A DNA stretch of 38,666 nucleotides from a virus (lineage: Duplodnaviria; Heunggongvirae; Uroviricota; Caudoviricetes): IMG/VR virus record IMGVR_UViG_3300045988_147970; one strand, 5' to 3'. Positions within the stretch are counted from its first letter, which is position 1; every line of letters starts with the position of its first letter. The translations under genes and the position numbers were made by a program. Shown piece after piece: positions 6,077 through 38,666 of this stretch. A model generated the notes under the pieces. That model was given only the letters and a program-made list of their open reading frames with translations. It was not told where the DNA came from and ran no database searches.

Positions 6077-7933
6077 CTATATGGTTACGCCTTTACTTAT
6101 AACTCTACGGCGTCTTCTACGTATACCTGACGAGTTCTGCACATACACATTACCTCGCATTTCCTGTTCGGCAAGCCAGTTAAAATTAGGGTTCAGAATT
6201 TCCATCGCGGCAGTTGCATAGTTACGGCAATCAAGAGGCTCGTTACGCTCGTAGACTTTCACCCACTTTTCTTTTGTCTGCCCATTTTTATATTCAAATA
6301 TTTTCTTCTCTGATAATAATCCTTTAAAGTATTCGGTATCATATCCTCTGTCAGAATCTAATGGGAAATGCATATAACCAGGACCAGGATCATGTAGTTT
6401 AATTCTTGCCATGATGGTCCCTTTACCATCATCAACCCCCAAATTAAACAACATAGCACCCACACGGTTATTATTACTTGGCTTTCCTATAAATGGTAAA
6501 CCTACCCCACCACGCCCCCTGATAGAGTATATTCGCCTTGATTCTCTCGGCTTAGTAAAGCGATATACCTCTGTCGTAAAATGCCCACCAGAGTCAATAC
6601 AAACGGAAGAAATCTGTAATTTTCGACCGTCACGGAATGACCAGCTACGGAGTAAGTATTCATCAAGTTGTTTCCAGACAACATCTTGTGCGGGATCACC
6701 TGGGAATATTTTATATTCTATCCCCCATGACTCCTTACCTTTTCCCCAACCGACCAATTCACAAACTAAATACGTGTCCTGTACGTCAACACCAGCACTT
6801 AACAATAAAACATCATCTGGTAAAAACTCTTCAAACCTTATTCTGCGTTGCAACAAGTATTCAGGATCGATATCGTCTTTAGCATCCTCTTTCCATGGCT
6901 CACCCAGCTTAAGGTTAATAAACTCCATTAATCCATTTTTATCGCGGTTTCTGGTTGCTTCCGTAAATTCTTCAACCAGCTCTGACAATGCAACCCACGG
7001 GGAGTAAAGACTGTTAATATGAAAACCAACAATACCTTTAACTCCAGTATGTTCAGCTATCCATACCCCCTTCGCCAACCAATCAACGTCTGGTTTACCA
7101 GATCCGCGCATAATCCCGCCGCACTCACAGCACTCATATCTGGCCGTTTCCGGTAACGCCTCACCTGAATCGCTCTTATCCCATCTGACTTGCGACCATT
7201 TCATCACCTGCATGGTGCCACAACATGGGCAAGGAACATGGTAGTAACGCTGATCGGAGAGCTTAAACCACTTGTGGATTTTGCTCGTTTCCTCCAAAAC
7301 AGGAGTAGAAACAAAAACTTTCTTACGATTATGAAAGTTGGTAGTACGCTGAATACCTAGTTTTAGTGGGTCGCCCTCCTGCGTCACACCGTAACGATCA
7401 ATCTCATCAGCTAACAGTATTCGAATTGGCCTGGATGCAAGACCTGCTGGGGAATTAGCACCAACAAGTGCTATATATCCACCAGCGTAATGCTTCATAC
7501 GTATAGTCGTGCTGGACTTTTTGGCTGCACCGCGCCCCTCTTTCCCTTCATGCAGCTTGTGTTTCAAACCAGGGGAATATTTGAACGTCGGATCAATACG
7601 CTCTTTTGAAAAAGCCTCAGCCGCCTCTACCGTTGGATAAATCATCAACTGAGGAGATGGCTCCTGATCTGCAAAGTAACCCATAACATTTAGCTGTAAT
7701 TCGGATTTACCAATTTGCGAGCTACATTGCATCACTACTGTTTCTGTATCAGCGTCACCAATAACATCCATTGGTTCACGCAAATATGGCACTCGGCTTG
7801 TACGCCACGGCCCTGGCTCTGGAGACGTTCCCGGCGCTACATGACGATACTTATCAGCCCATTCGGAAACAGTTAGCCGTGATTTAGGGCGAAGCGCACG
7901 GAAAAAAGCGGTGCTCCATACTGTTTCGCCCAT
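6077..7933 (-). CDS. terminase large subunit (lambda gpA family)
   Basis: 618 aa; N-terminal TVSEWADKYRHV resembles lambda gpA AVEWADANYYLP; Cys-rich CPCCG motif aligns with gpA CPHCG. Confidence 0.85.
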   Translation of the reverse strand: MGETVWSTAFFRALRPKSRLTVSEWADKYRHVAPGTSPEPGPWRTSRVPYLREPMDVIGDADTETVVMQCSSQIGKSELQLNVMGYFADQEPSPQLMIYPTVEAAEAFSKERIDPTFKYSPGLKHKLHEGKEGRGAAKKSSTTIRMKHYAGGYIALVGANSPAGLASRPIRILLADEIDRYGVTQEGDPLKLGIQRTTNFHNRKKVFVSTPVLEETSKIHKWFKLSDQRYYHVPCPCCGTMQVMKWSQVRWDKSDSGEALPETARYECCECGGIMRGSGKPDVDWLAKGVWIAEHTGVKGIVGFHINSLYSPWVALSELVEEFTEATRNRDKNGLMEFINLKLGEPWKEDAKDDIDPEYLLQRRIRFEEFLPDDVLLLSAGVDVQDTYLVCELVGWGKGKESWGIEYKIFPGDPAQDVVWKQLDEYLLRSWSFRDGRKLQISSVCIDSGGHFTTEVYRFTKPRESRRIYSIRGRGGVGLPFIGKPSNNNRVGAMLFNLGVDDGKGTIMARIKLHDPGPGYMHFPLDSDRGYDTEYFKGLLSEKKIFEYKNGQTKEKWVKVYERNEPLDCRNYATAAMEILNPNFNWLAEQEMRGNVYVQNSSGIRRRRRRVISKGVTI

Positions 7934-7938
7934 GAGGT

Positions 7939-8499
7939 TTATTCTTCCTGCTTAATAAATCGGGATTCCTGGAGCGCCTGAAGCGCAAAATTAATCTCGT
8001 CTTCAATAATGCGTTCGATCTCCCTGGCTGTTTTGCCTTCACAACGGGGAGCTGCTCTTGGAGCAATACTAAATAAGCGGCTACGCAATTCATTAGCTGC
8101 CAGAAATGCATCATCCCTGACCGCATCTTTAGCGATGAGAGAGCCTTCCTTTTCTTCAAATTCAAGGCGTTTCAGCTTTGCCTGATAAATTTTTTCTGCG
8201 GTCTTAGCCTTGTTGAATTGCACCGCAACACCGGAAGTACCACCAGCTAATCCGGCATCATCAGCGGGTAACTCTGGTTGTTCCGAAGATATCCCATGCC
8301 CTCTTTTTCCATTTTCAGCAGATACCTCACGACCAACCTGTCGGCTCGCTTCATAAGCCGCACTGGCTTTATCAAAATCCAGCTTGCCGCTTTTCAGCAC
8401 TGGAATGCGACCGGAACGACAGAGCTTCGTAACCATTGCCGGAGAAATACCTTTCCGGCGAGCAAACTCTGACTTACTGACGATGGCCATTACTTGCAA
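7939..8499 (-). CDS. terminase small subunit (Nu1-like, N-terminal HTH)
   Basis: 186 aa directly upstream of the large terminase; N-terminal helix-turn-helix-like segment (SKSEFARRKGISPAMVTKL). Confidence 0.6.
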   Translation of the reverse strand: MQVMAIVSKSEFARRKGISPAMVTKLCRSGRIPVLKSGKLDFDKASAAYEASRQVGREVSAENGKRGHGISSEQPELPADDAGLAGGTSGVAVQFNKAKTAEKIYQAKLKRLEFEEKEGSLIAKDAVRDDAFLAANELRSRLFSIAPRAAPRCEGKTAREIERIIEDEINFALQALQESRFIKQEE

Positions 8500-9080
8500 C
8501 CATTAGCAAGATACTGAACAAATCCCTCATGCGTTTCATGCGCGTCGTGGTACTGACGATAAACATCCAGCAACAATGCAATTTCCATATCCGTCGCGGG
8601 AATACGTTCTTTATCAATAGCCAGGTACTTAATTTGAACAACAGGGGAAGAATTATCGTCTTCTTCCTGCGGCTGTTCATCGCTTAACATTTCGTCAAGC
8701 TCTGCATCATTAAACCCAAGCAGATCAATATCAAAATCATCATCCATTAACTCTTTGACTTCTTCGGCCAGAAGCTGCATATCCCAGCCAGCATTTAAGG
8801 CCAGCTTGTTATCTGCAATCCTGTAAGCCTTCTTCTGTTTTTCAGAAAGGTTACTCAACCGAATCGCCGGAACTTTATCCATTTCCAGAATTTCGGCTGC
8901 TGCAAGCCGACCATGCCCCGCAATCAGTTCATTCTTTTCATCGATCAGCACAGGATTAGTGAAACCGAACTCACGGATACTGTTCACCAACTGTTCAACC
9001 TGCTCATCTGAATGAGTCCGTGAATTTTTGGCGTATCTGAGCAGCTTACCGACTGGTAAATATTCGATTTTTAGAGCCAT
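8490..9080 (-). CDS. ParB-like nuclease domain (ParB/Srx N-terminal domain) protein
   Basis: 196 aa with ParB N-domain box (LIAGHGRLAAA); stop overlaps the small terminase start; paralog of 11747..12370. Confidence 0.7.
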   Translation of the reverse strand: MALKIEYLPVGKLLRYAKNSRTHSDEQVEQLVNSIREFGFTNPVLIDEKNELIAGHGRLAAAEILEMDKVPAIRLSNLSEKQKKAYRIADNKLALNAGWDMQLLAEEVKELMDDDFDIDLLGFNDAELDEMLSDEQPQEEDDNSSPVVQIKYLAIDKERIPATDMEIALLLDVYRQYHDAHETHEGFVQYLANGCK

Positions 9081-9637
9081 TTTTTAACCGCCATAACACA
9101 ACAGGTTAAAGAAAACTGTTTAACTTATTGATACTAAAAGAGAAAAATGACGATCTTTTTACTCATAAAAAATCACACAAACCAGCATAATCATCTGATT
9201 TTATTAAGTTTTTATAAGTAAAAAGGATCTTGAGATGGTGTTTTGGTTAAAAGATTGGATGTATTTGCATGATTTATAACGATTTTTATCAGAACAACAT
9301 CACATTGGTTAAAGATCTGCGCGTATCTTGATGATCTAAAAGAAAATTTTCTACTTTCTTTTTACCAGCACAAATACAGCAAAAAATCACGTTTTCCCGA
9401 TATTTTTCAATGAGATGAGTAAATTTCTTTTACCGCAACTTTTAACCTAACTTTTTTCACGTTTAGCTAGCCGAACATCGGGGTTCGAATGACCCGCATC
9501 CAACGCTTTTGTCCAGAAGGACCCAATTCTGCCGGACGATGAAACGATGCTCGTGCACCCCCACAGACAGCCAGCGAGCGACGCTACAGAACACAGTGAA
9601 TACACTCTGCATAACAACACCATCAACCACACGATGA

Positions 9638-10357
9638 TTAACGAGAGAAGGTCTTGGAAAGAATGTCATCAATAGCCTTTGTGACTTCATCAGCAAACGC
9701 ATCCTCACCAGCACGCAGCGCCACGCCATGCCAATCAAGACGCTGCGAATAGTTAGGTTGCTGGATAAACGTAAGGATCAACGTAGGACGCCGCCCAACG
9801 CGCTGCCAGACGCCTGGTTGAAGCGGGTTACTTGTACCAGGTCGAACAACAAAAAACTCCGTAGGCTTGCCCTGACGGCGATTTTGATGCGCATCTCGCT
9901 GAACTCTTAGGCCAGATAAGACCTGCTGTAATTGCCCCCGCGAAATATTCCCGTATTTGTCCAGCTTTGCGCCGGGACCAGGAGCAATCTGCCAGCCGTT
10001 AGGCAAATATCCACCAGCCCTTAGCGCCCCTTCTGAGCGTTTGTACTGTCGTTGGCCACCTTCGATTTGCGGAGTCAACGTTACAGGGGCTGGCGTTCCT
10101 CCCCATTCACGAGCATACACAATGGCTGTAGGATCACTCTTCTTTGCGGCCAAAACGTAAGTAGAGTTCTGAATCCACGGCGTGGGCCTGTCAAATACCC
10201 GATTAATTTCATTCTTAATCGCAGCCTGAGAAGCCTTTGCCGTTCTGGTTGCCGCAAGCGCCATTGCGAACGGCAATTCGCGTTCTTCAAGGCGCTGGAG
10301 TTGTCGTTGAATATCCTGAGAAGAAAAATCCATCTTTATCTCAATTCTGTCAGCCAC
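9638..10357 (-). CDS. hypothetical protein within the ParB/methyltransferase cassette
   Basis: 239-aa ORF co-oriented between the ParB-MTase fusion and the terminase-proximal ParB gene; no motif recognised. Confidence 0.35.
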   Translation of the reverse strand: MADRIEIKMDFSSQDIQRQLQRLEERELPFAMALAATRTAKASQAAIKNEINRVFDRPTPWIQNSTYVLAAKKSDPTAIVYAREWGGTPAPVTLTPQIEGGQRQYKRSEGALRAGGYLPNGWQIAPGPGAKLDKYGNISRGQLQQVLSGLRVQRDAHQNRRQGKPTEFFVVRPGTSNPLQPGVWQRVGRRPTLILTFIQQPNYSQRLDWHGVALRAGEDAFADEVTKAIDDILSKTFSR

Positions 10358-10373
10358 CAGCGCCTCCTACACA

Positions 10374-11753
10374 CTACTTAATCAACGGCCGGAAAGCCGC
10401 CAGCACATCATCAGATCGTCCGATTGTTGAACCACCAGGCAACGGCAACTCAAACTCAAAACGAACAGCTTTCTCCAGACTCGCCCAACTAAGGGAATCA
10501 TCGTTAATGACGTGCAAATACCAGCTCTTACAGTTGAATATTGACCGCTTAATCCTGAAACCATGTACACGACACAACTGCTTCACTTCCTCATCAGAGT
10601 GAAACTTCTGGTAAAACCAGTGCCCCTTCCGGTACAACGCGGTAAAACCGTCATGATCAATAAAATAAAGCCGGCTTTTGGAACTCGCCGCTTGTGTTTG
10701 CTTCAGGACTGTTTCCAGTTCTCCACGGCTACGGCCAGAAAAGAATATTGACCCACCAGCTTTACACAGGCCTTTCAGAACCGTCAGAACGGACCATTCA
10801 GCCTCGACACTATCGACCGAGTTCAAAACGCTATCGCAAATCACGTAGTCGTAACGCCCTCGCGTTTTTAAGTCGTCCACCAGCGTATCAATCATCCGGT
10901 TTGTTGCGGCCCTATCCAGAGTGTTTCCAGCGCCCTTACGGCGGAAAAGCTCGAGATCATGCAGGTTATATCCCTTTGCCCTGAGCATTCGCGCGTAGTC
11001 TCCCTGCCCCGAACCAAAATCAATTCCTCTTGGCGTCTTGGCAATGATCGGGAGGATCAACGACTCATACAGATTTGATTTCAGGCTGCCACCATTACGC
11101 AACCGCATAAGCTGCGCATACGTCTGGATGTATGTTGTTTTCTCCAGATGAGAATACTCAAATACACCATAAGTTTTATTCAGATAACTTTGGTATTTTT
11201 CCTTCTCAACATCAGGGATCACAAACACCGTTAGCGGTGTGCGCGTCATTTTCGCTGCTAATGCATACTGAGCACAGTGAATAACCTCACCAGACTGAGT
11301 AGCAACACAACCACCCCACGGACCATACTTGATAACCAGTTCCGCTATGTTCTTTCGAACATATGCCATTTTCGCGCGCATATTGCCTGAGATCTGGCTT
11401 GCCGATACCTGAACAAAACCATGCTTATCTTCCAGACCGGACACCCTGCAACGCTCATCTCCGCTATCAAAATCCGTTCCGTTATGCAGTTGGTTAAACC
11501 GTACTTCGTCGTATACCGTCGTTTCACAGGGCAACACATACACCGCAGCACGCGTTATTCCCAACTTACGTAGCGCCTTCGTCCTTTGGTGTCCCGCCAC
11601 CAGCAAATCGCCGCGCACTATCAATGGCTTCACAAGCCCCAGCTCCCTGACGCTTTCCGCCAGCCTCGCAAGATCATCCTCACCGATAAAACGCGGGTTA
11701 TATTCCGCGCCGCGTAGGTGCGTTATGTCGTAATTGAGGTGAAGCATCAGCAC
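10374..11753 (-). CDS. ParB-like N-terminal domain fused to a class I SAM-dependent methyltransferase domain
   Basis: N-terminus has a ParB box (LLVAGHQRTKALRKLG); C-terminal half has SAM-MTase motif I (IDFGSGQGDYARML), an acidic motif II (YDYVICDSV) and GGSIFFSG; 459 aa. Confidence 0.65.
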   Translation of the reverse strand: MLMLHLNYDITHLRGAEYNPRFIGEDDLARLAESVRELGLVKPLIVRGDLLVAGHQRTKALRKLGITRAAVYVLPCETTVYDEVRFNQLHNGTDFDSGDERCRVSGLEDKHGFVQVSASQISGNMRAKMAYVRKNIAELVIKYGPWGGCVATQSGEVIHCAQYALAAKMTRTPLTVFVIPDVEKEKYQSYLNKTYGVFEYSHLEKTTYIQTYAQLMRLRNGGSLKSNLYESLILPIIAKTPRGIDFGSGQGDYARMLRAKGYNLHDLELFRRKGAGNTLDRAATNRMIDTLVDDLKTRGRYDYVICDSVLNSVDSVEAEWSVLTVLKGLCKAGGSIFFSGRSRGELETVLKQTQAASSKSRLYFIDHDGFTALYRKGHWFYQKFHSDEEVKQLCRVHGFRIKRSIFNCKSWYLHVINDDSLSWASLEKAVRFEFELPLPGGSTIGRSDDVLAAFRPLIK

Positions 11754-12370
11754 ACCTCCCCAGCCAGCAATGCGGATACAAATCCGATATAGCTGCCATT
11801 ATCATCAACATAACGAGACACCGCGCAGTCAAAACGATCCGCTTCCTCATCCGTTGCCGGGATTTTATGACCTCCAAATGACAGGTACTGAACTTTTACG
11901 CCTGATTTGGCCTCATCCTTCTCAAATGGGATATCCATACCCTCTGTGTCATCGTAGACCGCCGCACTCAATAAGTTATCCAGTTCGCGCTGAGTAAAAC
12001 CAATTGAGTCCAGAGCAAAATCATCGGCCGCAAGATCTGCAAGCTCCGCGCTTAACAACTCTTCATCCCAACCAGCATTCAGCGGAATACGGTTGTCGGC
12101 CAGACGATATGCCTTCTTCTGATTCTCCGTTAGCCCAGCCAGAACAATGCAGGGAACATCATCCATCCCCAACTGAGTGGCCGCAGCAATTCGACCATGA
12201 CCAGCAATTACAACGTTGTTCTCGTCTATCAGGATCGGATTAGTCCATCCGTACTCCTGTATGCTGGCAACAATCTGATCTACCTGCTCCACGGAGTGTG
12301 TGCGAGCGTTCTTTTCATAACCAATCAACACAGAAAGTGGTAAAGAAACCACATTAAGATGTTTTGTCAT
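11747..12370 (-). CDS. ParB-like nuclease domain protein (paralog of 8490..9080)
   Basis: 207 aa; ParB box (VIAGHGRIAAA); similar along its length to the 196-aa ParB-like protein, including the C-terminal KIPATDEE region. Confidence 0.7.
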   Translation of the reverse strand: MTKHLNVVSLPLSVLIGYEKNARTHSVEQVDQIVASIQEYGWTNPILIDENNVVIAGHGRIAAATQLGMDDVPCIVLAGLTENQKKAYRLADNRIPLNAGWDEELLSAELADLAADDFALDSIGFTQRELDNLLSAAVYDDTEGMDIPFEKDEAKSGVKVQYLSFGGHKIPATDEEADRFDCAVSRYVDDNGSYIGFVSALLAGEVC

Positions 12371-14356: not shown

Positions 14357-14944
14357 CTATGCCACTTGCCAGAGAGCATCATGCAACTGGATACCTCCAT
14401 TGCACTGGTTGCCCCAGCCATGCCAACCATCAGGTAAATCACCGCGAGCAAACAGCTCAATACGAGGAACATCACCTAACAGCCTTACCAGCTTGTCACG
14501 AACCACATCAGGCTTCCGAGAATGCTCCAGACGAGGCGATGTAAACGACTGAATGATCCCCGCATCAAGGCGGGTCGGCAATTTGCCTTTTACCGCAAAC
14601 AAGCAATCTTCACTGTTTGCACGAGTCATATGCCCCATCCCCATCACCAGCTTATCTGGTTGTCGGCTACCACATTTGTTCCATGTGAAGCCCTTCATGG
14701 TCATAAGCCTGAATCCCCATGCTTTCACCACCAGCAACGCTTCTTCTGGCTGAGTCGGAACCCACCACATGGCCAACAAACACGATTCAGGATTAGCAAG
14801 CTGCCAGACAGGAATACGAGCAATATCCTCAGCTTTCATCGTTGGATACTTAAAACCAGCTCCACGATTCCCATCCTTACACTTATCTTTGTATTCCCAG
14901 GGGGGATCTGCATAAATCAGATTAAACAATGCAATTGCCTCCAT
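14357..14944 (-). CDS. N6-adenine DNA methyltransferase, MT-A70 family
   Basis: N-terminal IYADPPWEY (DPPW catalytic motif) is the MT-A70 signature; 195 aa. Confidence 0.8.
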   Translation of the reverse strand: MEAIALFNLIYADPPWEYKDKCKDGNRGAGFKYPTMKAEDIARIPVWQLANPESCLLAMWWVPTQPEEALLVVKAWGFRLMTMKGFTWNKCGSRQPDKLVMGMGHMTRANSEDCLFAVKGKLPTRLDAGIIQSFTSPRLEHSRKPDVVRDKLVRLLGDVPRIELFARGDLPDGWHGWGNQCNGGIQLHDALWQVA

Positions 14945-15252: not shown

Positions 15253-15328
15253 TGGTGGCCCCTACCGGATTTGAACCGATGACCGTGCGATTATGAGTCG
15301 CCTGCTCTAACCACTGAGCTAAGGGGCC
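15253..15328 (-). tRNA. tRNA with anticodon CAU, ileX-like (tRNA-Ile2 or Met); 3-prime CCA encoded
   Basis: Reverse complement GGCCCCTTAGCTCAGTGGTTAGAGCAGGCGACTCATAATCGCACGGTCATCGGTTCAAATCCGGTAGGGGCCACCA folds as a cloverleaf; the first ~42 nt match my recollection of E. coli ileX. Confidence 0.85.
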
Positions 15329-23921: not shown

Positions 23922-24368
23922 ATGTGGCAATAGAAATTTACTACATTGCGTATAAGACAAGTTTTCTATGTCTAATAGGAAATGATGTTTCTTACATTTT
24001 ATCGCGTTCTGATGGCTACTGTGTGCGTATTTATCGACGTTTATTGATAAGGCTCGCCCCTTCCTCCTGCAAAGCCCGGCCGTAGGCCTTATTTCGGCCT
24101 TATATAAATTGATTTTGTATAGTTCGAAACGTGCCGTTTCGAAAAGGATGATCAGGCTGCTCCATGCCTCCGGCAAGTGCCGGAGGAGGTATATTTGAGC
24201 GTAGCGACTCGAACCGGCGCGAGCTTTAGCTCGCTGCAAGGGCGAACATATTCACAGGCAAAGCCTGTGTAAGTTAAATAAAGAAAGTCTTAATAAAAGA
24301 AAGTGATTTTGCATTTATTTGTTTAGTGCATCTATTATAAAAAACCATTTGCATATACATATCAGAAC

Positions 24369-24377
24369 TGTGGATAA
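24369..24377. promoter_or_regulatory. DnaA box (TGTGGATAA) within candidate oriR
   Basis: Perfect 9-mer consensus ~145 bp downstream of the repA stop in an AT-rich stretch. Confidence 0.5.
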
Positions 24378-24518
24378 CTTTATTAGCCGATGCCTGTAAA
24401 GGCGATATTTTTGCTGTGTTCAGGTTTAGAGAAAATTAATTTAGATTGTTTTTTGAACAGATATTTTATTGCGACGTAGATAATCCTCCGGTAAAACCGG
24501 ATTCATCATTCAGGTGGG

Positions 24519-25367
24519 TTAATGTTGGAGTGATTTCCAGGTCTTTCTTAACCTGTTATAACGCTGCTCAACGAGGGATCGTAAATATGCAAGGTCAGCA
24601 CCAGGATACATGCCATCAGCAAATTCCTGACTAACCTCTCTGGTGATTTGATGACGAAGTTCGGCCTCTCCCTTTTCCCGAACAAGACGCGCAGCTCTCT
24701 CCGCTGCTTTCTGTTTTGCCTTTATCTCTCTGGCCGTCTTCCTCTGACGCCATACATTCTCCATCTGCTCCTGAATAACAATACGCTTATAATCAGCCTC
24801 CGTTATCGCTTTTTTAAGCCGTTCGCTATTCTTCGCATTGAAGTAATTAAGTTTCTGGCTAACCGCACGTCTCCATGCTTGTTCAGTAATACCAACGGTT
24901 TCCAGCAGTTGATCACGAATCTCTATTTTCGCTGGCCAATACTGTTTATTCACCCGATCCCAGCGACGTTCATAATCAATAAAACCTAACGCTTTCAGTT
25001 GCGACAACGCCCTTGTACAGCGCGTTATAGACTTGTTCCCAGCTTCGGATACGGTAGACAGGCCGCAAAAATCAGCCAACGCCTCAGCACTAGCCAGAAC
25101 CCGCTTAGAAATGATGTTTACATGGTGCAAAATCGCAGCGATCACAGCATTAATCGCCCGACGACGATGCTCGTTTATCCGGCGCTTCCGCTCTGACGGT
25201 TGATTAACGTAGAACGCAACCTCACACGTAAGATCACGCCCATTAATGCGCTGTAAAGCATCAGATAACACCAGCGGCAGCTTGTGCGTATGGTGCTTTG
25301 GAGGCTGGAACTCCGGCGACAAATTACAAACGTAAGCTGAACGTAGAGACGGCATTGGTCTATCCAT
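24519..25367 (-). CDS. repA: replication initiator RepA, IncFII RepA1 family
   Basis: AINAVIAAILHHVNIISKRVLASAEALADFCGLSTVSEAGNKSITRCTRALSQLKALGFIDYE aligns with my recollection of R100 RepA1. Start set at MDRP; the track ORF extends 44 codons further upstream in frame. Confidence 0.8.
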   Translation of the reverse strand: MDRPMPSLRSAYVCNLSPEFQPPKHHTHKLPLVLSDALQRINGRDLTCEVAFYVNQPSERKRRINEHRRRAINAVIAAILHHVNIISKRVLASAEALADFCGLSTVSEAGNKSITRCTRALSQLKALGFIDYERRWDRVNKQYWPAKIEIRDQLLETVGITEQAWRRAVSQKLNYFNAKNSERLKKAITEADYKRIVIQEQMENVWRQRKTAREIKAKQKAAERAARLVREKGEAELRHQITREVSQEFADGMYPGADLAYLRSLVEQRYNRLRKTWKSLQH

Positions 25368-25382
25368 ATGTTCGCTCTTGCG

Positions 25383-25495
25383 TCCACGGAAAACCAACGT
25401 ATAATGGGAGTTGTCGAGGCGCCCATGGATTGTTGTTGTTGGTTTTCCGTGGATGTCGCAAGAAGCCCGCAGATTTATCTGCGGGCTTTTTGTTT
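25383..25495 (+). ncRNA. candidate CopA-like antisense RNA opposite the repA leader
   Basis: 16-bp perfect inverted repeat (25383..25398 with 25438..25453) followed by hairpin AGCCCGCAGA-TTTA-TCTGCGGGCT and a T-run on the plus strand; boundaries inferred. Confidence 0.4.
25464..25495 (+). terminator. rho-independent terminator on the plus strand, antisense to the repA leader
   Basis: Perfect 10-bp stem with 4-nt loop followed by TTTTTGTTT. Confidence 0.55.
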
Positions 25496-25862
25496 CCATA
25501 TCTGGTCACTTTCCAACCAGACACCCACAATCATAACCACGTTACGTGGTTTTAAGAGAACTCTACCACAACACTTTCGGTCATGCACGAAGTCTCTCAC
25601 TGATCGAACGATAATCCACCAGTAAAAGGATCTAAATTGGATCTCGTTTTGCGAGCATCATACTACTGGCCTAACTCCAGTCAATGATTCCCAGCCAGAA
25701 ACCTGCGGTAAACTCATCGTTCAGCAATATGCTGTCCGGCTTCAAAGATAAGGTGACATCATCCCTTAACAGCGCGGCCAGCTCCGTTAAAGGGTTGTTT
25801 TGACTTAATGCAAAACCGCTAATAAACATATTGGCGGTTTTGTTCCTTAAATCATCTTGCCT

Positions 25863-37349: not shown

Positions 37350-38666
37350 TTATTCAGAAAACAAGTTCAGCAGATAATCAGGATTATATTCCATGACGAA
37401 CTCTATATCTCTGGCAGGTGAGAATGGTGTCATTTTTACATGGAATTTAACAATCCCGTCCATCAATGACGTAATCGTGTTTTCAGACTGATCAAAGGTA
37501 ACAACACCACCTGCAATATCCTGATTACCAGTGAGGCCGTTAAGCCAAATATTCGCACTAGTAACAATCGATTCAATTAATCGACGGTTTGCAGGATTGT
37601 CTATTTTTGACCAATGCGAAAGAATTAACGTATTACCCACCCAGTTAAACATACGTCGGCAAACACGAAATGCGTCTTTGGGGTCTGTAGATGTTGGATA
37701 AATAGCATTACGGTTTCCCCATGATTTCCAACCATCAAAATTAAGGCTTGTTACAATCCCCTGTCCATTTAAGTAGTTTGCCTGGCTAATGTTAAGCCAT
37801 ACCTCACTGCCATCTTTACGTACAGCACCGTCCATCTGTAGTTTTATATTTGACGGAGAACGTGATGGAATATCATCATACTGACTATCCAGCAAGCATG
37901 TTGCTGCAGCTAAATGGGTTGAGTGATGGTAAATATTGTCACCAAGTTTCACCATCGGCCAGCACACTGTCTGGTTAGCTGCCATATGATTATTGTTCTG
38001 CTTCCATTCAGGAACAGCAGAATAATCACTGATAGTAGATTTATCAGTCGGCGCATCGGTGATAGCTTCTGCTTTGAACAATTCACTAATCAGCGCAGCT
38101 TTAGCCGCCATTAGCTGGCCAACTTCACTATCAGAACTAAATCCAGGCGCAATCACTTGTCCAGGAACCAACTTGAAGCGGGGATACACATCAGACAGTA
38201 ACTCAAGCCCTGTATTGGCTTTAGTGTTGGAATCCACACCACCGATAATGTCATTTTTAGTTACGGCACCGGGATCAAGATGCGTATAACTAACCTTAAG
38301 AGTAGCGTCTTTTTCGGTAATTTTTCCTCCGCTAATAGCGGTAATGACCGTATAGCCATTATCATCCAGCGCCAGCACATAATCGGTGTCAACCGTTAAT
38401 CCTGCCGAATCACCATCTGCTTTTTTCACAACAACAGATTTATATAAGACACCATCGTTAGAGAGCGTACCTTTCCCGCCAGAAAGTTTTACTACCTCAT
38501 CAGGTACGTCTTTCTTATGCTTTGCTGGATCAAGCACATTAATAAATACAACTGGCGCAACACCATATATTCCAAATGCGACTTTAATTACTTCGCTTAA
38601 AGTATATTTCTCGAAGTTTGTGCTATATCCTATTTTAGATACGGCCTCTGCGTATGTATAAGCAAT
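37350..38666 (-). CDS. tail sheath protein, 3-prime major portion (reading frame open to the window end)
   Basis: Track ORF 37350..38537 plus 43 in-frame codons to 38666; the first 18 of these are the 54-bp repeat also at 31..84, linking to the N-terminal fragment at 4..231; immediately upstream of the tube gene. Confidence 0.8.
   Translation of the reverse strand: MAYTYAEAVSKIGYSTNFEKYTLSEVIKVAFGIYGVAPVVFINVLDPAKHKKDVPDEVVKLSGGKGTLSNDGVLYKSVVVKKADGDSAGLTVDTDYVLALDDNGYTVITAISGGKITEKDATLKVSYTHLDPGAVTKNDIIGGVDSNTKANTGLELLSDVYPRFKLVPGQVIAPGFSSDSEVGQLMAAKAALISELFKAEAITDAPTDKSTISDYSAVPEWKQNNNHMAANQTVCWPMVKLGDNIYHHSTHLAAATCLLDSQYDDIPSRSPSNIKLQMDGAVRKDGSEVWLNISQANYLNGQGIVTSLNFDGWKSWGNRNAIYPTSTDPKDAFRVCRRMFNWVGNTLILSHWSKIDNPANRRLIESIVTSANIWLNGLTGNQDIAGGVVTFDQSENTITSLMDGIVKFHVKMTPFSPARDIEFVMEYNPDYLLNLFSE
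38613..38666. repeat. 54-bp exact direct repeat, copy 2 (ends exactly at the window end)
   Basis: See copy 1 at 31..84. Confidence 0.85.

Follow-up and report, generated by a model that had tools for sequence, protein, structure and literature searches.

The packaging site (cos) of phage lambda lies immediately upstream of the terminase genes, and at the right end of the lambda genome the heptamer GGGTCCT is followed at 23 nt by ACG/GGGCGGCGACCT, where the slash marks a nick. We take GGCGTTTCCGTTCTTC, at lambda nt 51-66, to be the lambda R3 site. The lambda cosQ element is reportedly GGGTCCT at lambda bp 48473-48479 (Wieczorek & Feiss 2001). An AT-rich segment between cosN and cosB has been described as I2 (PMC4856287). 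The 'simple' cosB of phage N15 and the cos sites of Rpp-hijacked PICIs show, in work from the Feiss and Penades laboratories, that cosQ and cosN are conserved and that cosB and TerS specificity vary as modules (PMC4669245, PMC9026076). Vibrio phages X29, phi 2, vB_VpaM_XM1 (XM1), R20L and PVP-XSN, placed in a proposed family 'Weiviridae' (PMC11432961), have the order cos, ParB-like gene, small terminase subunit (TerS) and gpA-type large terminase subunit (TerL), and for X29 and phi 2 'defined ends' were reported from read-coverage drop-offs (PMC5690320). In Acinetobacter phage HFM1 (GenBank OR246918) an 11-nt 5' cohesive end is annotated from PhageTerm at both genome ends, and the genes for a TerS homologue and a gpA-type TerL lie directly downstream of it. 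No cos is described in the available portions of the two Vibrio phage papers (PMC11432961 and PMC5690320), and the 613R2 preprint does not mention one.

The DNA analysed here (the window, 38,666 nt in all) belongs to a temperate myovirus maintained as a plasmid, or plasmid prophage. It is a myovirus-type phage-plasmid, recorded in Escherichia, Salmonella and Klebsiella as plasmids of ~48 kb; among E. coli carriers it is a plasmid in 71 of 72 genomes, and the 48,488-bp plasmid of E. coli ATCC 25922 is 98.7% identical here. An affiliation with the pSLy3 phage-plasmid group was considered and dropped, as that group belongs to the SSU5 supergroup, and vB_YpM_HQ103 was set aside as an unrelated peduovirus. 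Positions 9081-9637 of the window are very probably the cos site of this element, organised like that of lambda. A lambda-type cos is an ordinary and expected feature here.

The region is a 557-bp non-coding one that lacks a conserved ORF and, as the original prediction had it, lies directly upstream of the ParB-like and terminase operon, between the stop of a 239-aa ORF (9638-10357, minus strand) and the ParB-like start codon. It had also been called the largest gene-free stretch, which holds for 9081-9446, the longest part of the window without any ORF of at least 50 aa. G+C content is ~0.29-0.32 in 9000-9500 and rises to ~0.45-0.51 after 9400. Every nearby gene is on the minus strand. The first gene after cos encodes a 196-aa ParB/Srx N-terminal-domain protein (8490-9080, minus strand; Pfam ParB_N 3.8e-8, phrog_620 4.6e-75) and is followed by those for a 186-aa TerS (7939-8499, minus strand; phrog_57 'terminase small subunit' 7.4e-42), with weak N-terminal HTH-type matches at residues 5-39, and a 618-aa TerL of the lambda gpA family (6077-7933, minus strand; Pfam GpA_ATPase ~7e-76, GpA_nuclease ~1e-84), and then by adaptor, portal, ClpP protease and capsid genes. 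Gene orientation is constant from the lysis module, across cos, to the head genes. A TerL with both the ATPase and the gpA nuclease domains is thus encoded beside the site, as expected of a lambda-type cos, and is 28% identical to lambda gpA over 599 aa (E = 2e-62). TerS has no sequence similarity to lambda Nu1, and a search with it against solved structures returned nothing useful; it is 42% identical to the TerS of the Vibrio phages and 35% identical to that of HFM1.

The best-conserved non-coding block of the region, at 9441-9526 (minus strand), is a cos core composed of a cosQ-like element, cosN, a spacer and the first R-like site. It is 86% identical to the sequences of 18 diverged relatives, compared with 70-76% for the flanking coding sequences, 60% for the AT-rich half and 26% for the adjacent spacer, and BLAST alignments to the relatives resume exactly at 9526. 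The original prediction had located the signal in the AT-rich repeats, whereas this block, with both the predicted cosN and the cosQ-like element, lies in the GC-rich half. The cosQ-like heptamer GGGTCCT (9518-9524, minus strand) is contained within an invariant TTGGGTCCTTCTGG (9513-9526) and stands 23 bp before the predicted nick; its sequence and its distance from the nick are those at the right end of lambda, and it may act in termination as cosQ does. The predicted cosN (9483-9494, minus strand), placed by the record boundaries of relatives, would yield the 12-nt cohesive end GGTCATTCGAAC by nicks at 9494/9495 and 9482/9483. The sequence, read directly, has little two-fold symmetry at cosN, with 5 of 10 half-site positions matching. 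The spacer from cosN to the first R-like site (9448-9482, minus strand), comparable to lambda I2, is near-invariant in the alignment of relatives and contains a conserved TCGGCTAGCTA box and an A-tract (9452-9457).

The ends of related genome records coincide with this core. Three Yersinia phage records that are 98-99% identical to the window, all flagged 'circular', begin or end within it at two points 12 nt apart: vB_YpM_39 and vB_YpM_41 end in ...GGATGCG and begin with GGTCATTCGAAC, and vB_YpM_44 ends in ...GCGGGTCATTCGAAC (i.e. ...GGTCATTCGAAC) and begins with CCCGATG. On the window these boundaries fall at 9494/9495 and 9482/9483. The Vibrio phages have a homologous cos core (TTTGGGTCCT...GCG/GGTGCTCGCGA(C)/CCC...TCGTCTAGCTA plus an A-run), including CTAGCTA followed by the A-run, and the linear records of X29 and phi 2 break at homologous nucleotides (...GCGGGTGCTCGCGA/CCCC). 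Those of XM1, R20L and PVP-XSN begin with GGTGCTCGCGACCCC, which XM1 has at both ends, and the HFM1 ends fit the frame GCG/GGACCGAGGAC/CCC. A GGGTCCT motif lies 22-23 nt from the end in X29, XM1, R20L and PVP-XSN, and HFM1 has a degenerate form, AGTCTCT, with 5 of 7 positions matching; across the cases seen, the spacing from heptamer to nick is 20-23 bp. We note that the heptamer persists where TerL identity is only 28%, and also in phages of marine Vibrio and uncultured metagenomic phages. Among 120 metagenomic viral contigs containing TTGGGTCCTTCTGG, four end 26-29 nt past the 14-mer, compared with ~0.05 expected by chance (a rough estimate from contig sizes); in genome contigs neither TerS peptides nor the 20-nt cosN core had a match. 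The end of contig L005 (at approximately window position 9195) and the start of record 473R2 (9080) were rejected as physical ends, both being boundaries of assembly or prophage prediction.

Taken with the mapped homologous ends, the record boundaries point indirectly to unique virion ends at cosN, as in lambda. The Yersinia records and the terminal duplication of XM1 give an overhang of 12 nt, and X29, phi 2 and HFM1 give one of 11 nt, such that an 11-nt cohesive end (9484-9494) may be the alternative. A 5' overhang is annotated by PhageTerm in HFM1, the end duplications in XM1 and HFM1 also imply one, and by extension the overhang in this element would also be 5'.

The region had been put forward as either a cos or a pac site, and it is as a cos that the proposal stands. 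A pac site serving headful packaging, possibly Dam-regulated as in P1 and yielding permuted, terminally redundant virion DNA, would fit the location upstream of the terminase genes and the four GATC sites, confirmed at 9152, 9226, 9314 and 9333, that span 182 bp of AT-rich DNA (4 seen compared with 0.82 expected, reached in ~0.5% of shuffles). However, TerL belongs to the lambda gpA family, and in relatives the defined ends, or the annotated cohesive ends, fall at a single conserved position. In P1, the pac cut is flanked by clusters of TGATCA/G hexamers, and the packaged DNA shows permutation and terminal redundancy. The sites here occur as GATCT rather than the P1-type hexamer, and only two are conserved, that at 9226 in 18 of 20 relatives and that at 9152 in 15 of 20; the other two are missing from vB_YpM_44 and from most relatives. 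Membership of the P1-type pac group was accordingly rejected, and a pac site appears exceedingly improbable.

The GC-rich half had been suggested to encode a small RNA, and the segment 9440-9640 is indeed non-coding, with a minus-strand fold slightly more stable than those of shuffled sequences (z = -1.81). Neither strand reaches significance, however (z = -1.8 and -1.3), there is no Rfam match in 8950-9750 even at E <= 1, and a consensus scan of 8900-9800 found no promoter- or terminator-like sites; a scan of the whole window (Rfam 15, gathering threshold) gave a tRNA at 15256-15328 as its sole match. The conserved part coincides with the genome ends of relatives, and outside it the spacer from the stop codon of the 239-aa gene to cosQ (9527-9637) is only 26% identical and has many indels, among them ones of 34, 14 and 16 nt. 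A small RNA is thus highly improbable.

The resemblance of this core to lambda is one of layout. At GGGTCCT plus 23 nt the window has GCG/GGTCATTCGAAC where lambda has ACG/GGGCGGCGACCT, and the two share ...CG/GG... where the first nick falls, a 12-nt cohesive end (predicted in the window), an AT-rich spacer, inverted repeats around IHF-consensus sites, a gpA-family TerL and the position of the site immediately upstream of the terminase genes. The first repeat begins in a similar place throughout, at nt 48-56 in the window, nt 51-66 for what we take to be lambda R3, nt 50 in X29 and nt 51 in HFM1. Several features are unlike lambda: the cohesive end GGTCATTCGAAC is identical to that of lambda at only 3 of 12 positions, which excludes the window from the narrow group with cohesive ends close to GGGCGGCGACCT, the repeat GGTWAAA(A)G is unrelated to the lambda R sites, cos and terS are separated by a ParB-like gene, and the element that carries the site is a plasmid prophage of myovirus type. 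The window shows the same modular pattern as the N15 and PICI cos sites, but does not share with them a cosN near-identical to that of lambda or 12-nt ends of high identity to lambda's.

The AT-rich half is probably cosB and contains GGTWAAA sites together with IHF-like sites. GGTTAAA, counted on either strand, is present five times in the region among 11 copies in the whole 38.7-kb window, compared with 0.13 expected in the region from dinucleotide-preserving shuffles, and any 7-mer with at least two G/C reaches five copies in only 0.1-0.3% of shuffles. Overall, this core is the only element of the named repeats beyond chance. Families of 8- and 9-mers allowing one mismatch are not above local shuffles of the region, and reliance is therefore placed only on the exact GGTTAAA core and on positional conservation. 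As to the latter, there are five columns of the alignment at which 19-20 of 20 relatives have GGTWAAA, though the surroundings are only 60% identical. Nearest to cosN is GGTTAAAAG (9439-9447, minus strand; nt 48-56 of the predicted mature left end), present at the same column in 20 of 20 relatives, followed by GGTAAAAG (9427-9434, minus strand; 20 of 20) and GGTAAAAAG (9358-9366, minus strand; 19 of 20), the last of these kept at the edge of a deletion in vB_YpM_44. On the plus strand are GGTTAAAG at 9307-9314 and again at 9104-9111, the latter with GGTWAAA at its column in 20 of 20 relatives, and a second GGTTAAAAG at 9245-9253, which contributes the first TTGGTTAAAAGAT of the original prediction. 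This last copy is exact only in the window's own group and is replaced by a one-mismatch version, GAGTAAAA, in the relatives.

Within the AT-rich half, invariance is highest in an imperfect palindrome at 9152-9229, consisting of GATCTTTTTAC, an IHF-like site and GTAAAAAGGATC, with GATC at both outer ends and R-like sites at 9155-9163 (minus strand) and 9217-9225 (plus strand). Its arms (inverted repeat I1, 9155-9185 and 9195-9225) are 77% complementary. The IHF-consensus match at its centre, AATCAGATGATTA (WATCARNNNNTTR; 9188-9200, minus strand), is one of eight in the window and is kept at the same column in 20 of 20 relatives. A second match, TATCAATAAGTTA (9121-9133, minus strand), lies between the R-like sites at 9104-9111 (plus strand) and 9155-9163 (minus strand) and is present in 3 of 20. 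There is also a degenerate duplication with an offset of ~203 bp, 9104-9190 relative to 9307-9390, which the original prediction had missed and whose alignment score is 54, compared with 23 +/- 4 and a maximum of 38 in shuffles.

Part of this half is dispensable. A 90-bp segment, 9266-9355, is missing from vB_YpM_44 (a deposited record, host Y. pestis EV76-CN), and it includes the R-like site at 9307-9314, the GATC sites at 9314 and 9333, TTGGTTAAAGAT (9305) and ATCTTGATGAT (9325). The repeats named in the original prediction are present as described, the TTGGTTAAA pair at 9243 and 9305 and ATCTTGA, of the pair ATCTTGA(G/T)GAT, at 9227 and 9325; however, the proposed mirrored order finds no support as a functional unit, as the segment that vB_YpM_44 lacks takes in one copy from either pair along with two GATC sites out of four, so that one copy of each repeat is dispensable. 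The ATCTTGA(G/T)GAT pair was dropped altogether, being neither enriched (two of seven copies in the window) nor conserved in relatives. The suggestion that the repeats are small-terminase sites is therefore plausible for the GGTTAAA core, with its conserved positions and a first copy at nt 48, but not for the mirrored pairs.

Comparable arrays occur in the related phages. X29 has five direct copies of a short GTTAA-containing repeat, GTTAACAC, 16-24 bp apart over ~140 bp at the homologous place, and HFM1 has TAACAC-type repeats, a motif that differs from that of the window. In HFM1 no ParB-like gene separates cos from terS, yet the repeats are present, which favours TerS as the binder. No plasmid replication module is seen in the parts of the Vibrio phage records examined. 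The AT-rich part of the window, at ~400 bp, is far longer than the cosB of lambda (~120 bp) or its counterpart in the Vibrio phages (~140 bp), and some of it may therefore serve another role.

One such role would be regulatory, with cosQ and cosN as described but most of ~9090-9420 controlling the ParB-like, terS and terL operon rather than acting as cosB: an activator-dependent late promoter or operator, in which a transcription factor or the adjacent ParB-like protein binds the GGTWAAA/GATC palindromes. The ~260 bp of additional AT-rich DNA relative to the Vibrio phages, the loss of 90 bp from that half in vB_YpM_44, and the start of a ParB_N-domain gene directly after the region are consistent with this, as are the enrichment of GATC in an element that encodes several methyltransferases and the shape of 9152-9229, a palindrome with GATC at its outer ends that is typical of an operator or parS-like site. 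However, a consensus scan of 8900-9800 found no sigma-70-like promoter on either strand, and the shared orientation of lysis module, cos and head genes would allow lambda-like read-through, with no promoter needed here. The cosN-proximal sites at nt 48-68 also have this repeat core, and the comparable repeats of HFM1 likewise tell against dependence on a ParB-like gene. A mainly regulatory function for this part is on balance unlikely, though it deserves serious consideration, and cosB is the preferred reading.

The AT-rich DNA, with its short repeats and GATC sites, could also be viewed as a plasmid maintenance site, either an iteron/Dam origin or a parS centromere for the ParB-like proteins, given that the element is a plasmid in nearly all E. 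coli carriers and that ParB_N-domain genes flank the region on both sides. However, repA (24519-25499) is ~15 kb away, and in a full-length relative a ParA gene and its own small partner ORF are sited elsewhere, far off. The ParB-like proteins match phage 'ParB-like nuclease' families common beside terminases, and the same repeat-bearing region is found at the genome ends of HFM1 and of the virulent-looking Vibrio phages. With rep and par genes distant and the homologous region at phage genome ends, assignment to iteron origins or to parS was rejected, and a maintenance site is very unlikely.

In the proposed model the cos site is read along the minus strand, on which the packaging operon runs, with the direction of packaging taken by analogy with lambda. 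The order is the upstream gene, a variable spacer, GGGTCCT (9524-9518), 23 bp, cosN, the A-tract spacer and the repeat array. The gpA-type TerL would introduce staggered nicks at cosN, giving a 12-nt (possibly 11-nt) 5' cohesive end GGTCATTCGAAC (9494-9483). From nt 48, copies of GGT(T/A)AAA(A)G on both strands, with IHF-like sites between them, extend over ~400 bp to the ParB-like start codon. TerS would bind the cosN-proximal repeats (cosB), perhaps with the involvement of IHF, and position TerL on cosN, with packaging starting toward the genes for terminase and head proteins. When the next cos of the concatemer is reached, the terminating cut would be triggered by cosQ and cosN together.

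Two wider readings, taken jointly, are speculative and rather doubtful: that the heptamer and its ~23-bp spacing are an ancient, near-universal signature of gpA-type terminases, and that the ~400-bp cosB of this lineage is unusually long. If the first were true, a rule of GGGTCCT, ~23 bp and CG/GG could predict genome ends from sequence alone. If the second were true, duplicated 'R, IHF, R' modules with half-sites ending in GATC would make up the long cosB, and initiation would be tuned by adenine methylation (through host Dam or methyltransferases of the element itself), by the ParB-like protein, or by both; the ParB-like protein would then be a third, clade-specific packaging factor.

Current understanding of cos is not overturned by this analysis, which fixes the genome ends and packaging signal for a widespread, little-studied family of ~48-kb phage-plasmids, related virions of which infect Yersinia pestis. 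This then provides a basis for orienting and annotating genomes, recognising the element in assemblies, constructing cosmid-like vectors and transduction assays, and judging the potential to mobilise other DNA with a matching cos. It also extends the cosQ/cosN geometry of lambda to terminases only 28% identical to gpA, and the keeping of that geometry while the TerS/cosB part was swapped out supports a modular view of packaging specificity.

The 557-bp non-coding gap at 9081-9637 is very probably the cos site of a phage-plasmid, with the lambda architecture. All genes around it are on the minus strand, and it lies between a 239-aa ORF that precedes it (10357-9638; phrog_1924) and a gene for a 196-aa protein with a ParB/Srx N-terminal domain that directly follows it (9080-8490). 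Next come the small terminase, TerS (8499-7939; phrog_57, 7e-42), a large terminase, TerL, of the lambda gpA family (7933-6077; GpA_ATPase 7e-76, GpA_nuclease 1e-84), and then a head-tail adaptor, portal, ClpP-type protease, unassigned 127-aa ORF and major capsid protein, in that order. Positions 9081-9446 form the longest run in the window free of ORFs of at least 50 aa. We note that three proteins with ParB/Srx N-terminal domains are encoded around cos, one as a fusion to a methyltransferase domain, together with an MT-A70 methyltransferase (8490-9080, 10374-11753, 11747-12370 and 14357-14944, all minus strand). The Vibrio phages X29 and XM1 likewise have a ParB-like gene between cos and terS, and Acinetobacter phage HFM1 has none there; the product of this gene may act in packaging, end protection or DNA modification.

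With the TerS protein as query, 26 related loci were taken from IMG/VR, giving 20 distinct sequences for alignment of the intergenic region. Identity between the window and 18 diverged relatives is 70% at the end of the upstream gene, 26% with several indels in the spacer after its stop codon (9527-9637), 86% in a core block at 9441-9526, 60% in the AT-rich half and 76% at the start of the ParB-like gene. This places the functional core in the GC-rich half rather than in the AT-rich repeats, where the original prediction had put the signal. A small RNA had been proposed for the GC-rich half, and is rejected on the grounds that there is no Rfam match, folding is non-significant and conservation is poor beyond the cos core.

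The cut site is located by the ends of related genome records. The minus-strand sequence of the core is TTGGGTCCTTCTGGACAAAAGCGTTGGATGCG/GGTCATTCGAAC/CCCGATGTTCGGCTAGCTAAACGTGAAAAAAGTTAGGTTAAAAG, with slashes at the boundaries. The records of the closely related Yersinia phages vB_YpM_39 and 41 finish with ...GGATGCG and begin with GGTCATTCGAAC, whereas that of vB_YpM_44 finishes with ...GCGGGTCATTCGAAC and begins with CCCGATG, such that 12 nt separate the two boundaries. Five more distant Vibrio phages (X29, phi 2, XM1, R20L and PVP-XSN; TerS 41-42% identity) share the order cos, ParB-like gene, TerS and TerL with the window, and the homologous nucleotides form the ends of their linear records, ...GAGCG/GGTGCTCGCGA(C)/CCCCG..., with the cohesive sequence present at both ends in XM1. 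For X29, drops in read coverage had led to its ends being described as defined (PMC5690320). HFM1 (TerS 35% identity) has the same end frame, ...TTGCG/GGACCGAGGAC/CCCAAC, and an 11-nt 5' cohesive sequence annotated at both ends by PhageTerm; no other relative has a cohesive end annotated in its record, and the papers found and read on the element or its relatives give no description of this cos. Because the record ends fall there, cosN is very probably at 9483-9494, with a cohesive end of 12 nt, possibly 11 nt. The end is most likely 5'-protruding, since the duplicated ends in XM1 and HFM1 are explicable only by fill-in of a 5' overhang. Of the cos/pac alternatives proposed for the gap, cos is thus upheld by record ends at cosN, while pac or headful packaging is excluded by the gpA family of TerL and the defined ends of the relatives.

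A second element lies upstream of the nick. The lambda ends, taken from NC_001416, read ...ACGGGTCCTTTCCGGTGATCCGACAGGTTACG/GGGCGGCGACCT/CGCGGG..., and GGGTCCT is found 23 nt ahead of the nick both in lambda and in the window (9518-9524). The window nick was placed from record ends, independently of the heptamer, so that a given heptamer at one given offset would arise by coincidence about once in 16,000 cases. We take the lambda copy (bp 48473-48479) to be the cosQ of Wieczorek & Feiss 2001. Among lambda-like phages the 7-bp cosQ shows high conservation, and packaging termination requires it (PMC4669245, PMC4856287). Scanning IMG/VR for TTGGGTCCTTCTGG gave at least 120 loci. Among the matches listed, 18 are relatives with GCG/GGN9/CCC downstream, and four unrelated metagenomic contigs (L041, L095, L107 and L128) end 26-29 nt past the motif, as a filled-in right end would give, with about 0.05 contigs expected to end there by chance (estimated roughly from the lengths of the contigs). 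These contig ends point to the cosQ-like motif as a marker of the right genome end across a far broader range of uncultured phages.

The AT-rich half carries short repeats. Of the 11 exact GGTTAAA copies in the window, five lie here, with 0.13 expected from local dinucleotide shuffles, and five copies of any comparable 7-mer were reached in 0.1-0.3% of shuffles; 8 of the 15 window matches to RGTWAAA+G fall within 9104-9447. In 19-20 of the 20 aligned sequences GGTWAAA is kept at five shared columns, in surroundings that are only 60% identical. When nucleotides are counted from the predicted mature left end, the first pair of these R-like sites falls at nt 48-56 and 61-68, and in lambda GGCGTTTCCGTTCTTC, presumably R3, is at nt 51-66. 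Similarly, X29 has a first GTTAACAC from nt 50 followed by four more at a spacing of 16-24 bp, and HFM1 a first TAACAC from nt 51. Two of the eight window matches to the IHF consensus used (WATCARNNNNTTR) also lie in this half; that at 9188-9200 is kept in 20/20 relatives and is the centre of a conserved imperfect palindrome (9152-9229; GATCTTTTTAC...GTAAAAAGGATC), whereas that at 9121-9133 is kept in only 3/20. A degenerate duplication at a distance of about 203 bp (9104-9190 and 9307-9390) carries in each copy, in order, GGTTAAAGA, CTAAAAGARAA, TCTTTTTAC and AAAAAATCAC. We read the cosN-proximal repeats as a putative cosB, and it is somewhat more probable than otherwise that the GGTWAAA sites are TerS-binding elements of it. 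HFM1 has no ParB-like gene in that place, which points to TerS rather than the ParB-like protein as the putative binder. The distal 260-300 bp may be an extended cosB or have a regulatory role; an activator-dependent late promoter may lie here, although no sigma-70 consensus was found on either strand.

The repeats and GATC sites named in the original prediction are present in this half at the coordinates it gave, and GATC is seen four times in the gap (0.82 expected), with three of the four (9152, 9226 and 9314) directly adjoining R-like half-sites. The ATCTTGA(G/T)GAT pair is neither enriched nor conserved in the relatives. A natural dispensability test is provided by vB_YpM_44 (OR545055.1, record nt 1-332), which has a clean 90-bp deletion corresponding to window 9266-9355. 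The deleted segment contains TTGGTTAAAGAT (9305), ATCTTGATGAT (9325) and the GATC sites at 9314 and 9333, and thus one member of each pair described as mirrored and half of the GATC sites, which leaves the mirrored order unsupported as a functional unit. Since the vB_YpM_44 record is that of a deposited phage whose host is named, propagation does not seem to require these copies.

The gap has matches of 96.7-99.6% identity in 72 complete E. coli genomes, 71 of these matches being on plasmids of about 47-50 kb, and the cos core matches 62 plasmids in PLSDB, all non-mobilizable, from Escherichia (58; E. coli, E. fergusonii and E. albertii), Salmonella enterica (3) and Klebsiella aerogenes (1). 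A full-length relative, a 48,488-bp plasmid of the ATCC 25922 lineage, encodes repA, ParA and a toxin-antitoxin pair along with a complete set of myovirus structural and lysis genes. At the cos region the window shares 98-99% identity with the deposited phages vB_YpM_39, 41 and 44, which are of 49 kb and were propagated on Yersinia pestis EV76. From the plasmid matches, the phage gene set and the Yersinia phages, the window is a phage-plasmid. A plasmid origin or parS in the gap is rejected, as repA (24519-25499, minus strand, in the window) and ParA lie elsewhere and the homologous region is at phage genome ends. Downstream of repA, an AT-rich, ORF-poor stretch (24240-24518) with a 16-bp tandem pair, TTAAATAAAGAAAGT/TTAATAAAAGAAAGT, at 24274-24304 is a candidate for the plasmid origin; no iteron array longer than this pair was detected.

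Among other features, the final 54 nt of the window (38613-38666) are identical to 31-84, and the window therefore wraps a circular unit of about 38,582 bp, about 10 kb smaller than the 48-kb plasmids. The tail-sheath gene is divided between the two window ends, and nt 1-30 are unique and interrupt its reading frame (...STNF/SAVCSGSL*); they may reflect an assembly or rearrangement junction. A metagenome-derived contig of 68,543 bp (IMGVR_UViG_3300029841_000009) is 100% identical to the window across 8490-10357; it is larger than one element unit and could be a concatemer, a misassembly or the contig from which the window came. A tRNA with a CAT anticodon (15253-15328, minus strand) is called tRNA-Met by ARAGORN, and RefSeq gives its homologue in NZ_CP149501.1 as tRNA-Ile, an assignment that would presuppose lysidine modification.

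TerL is 28% identical to lambda gpA (E = 2e-62) and TerS has no detectable similarity to lambda Nu1, which fits the known modular packaging logic in which cosQ and cosN are read by TerL and cosB by TerS. Only 3 of 12 cohesive-end positions are shared with lambda, and we reject placement in a narrow 'lambda-like cohesive end' group; the window cos belongs to the broader gpA-terminase cos type, and differs from lambda in its TerS/cosB module and in the ParB-like gene inserted after cos. Locating the site helps annotation and studies of this phage-plasmid family.
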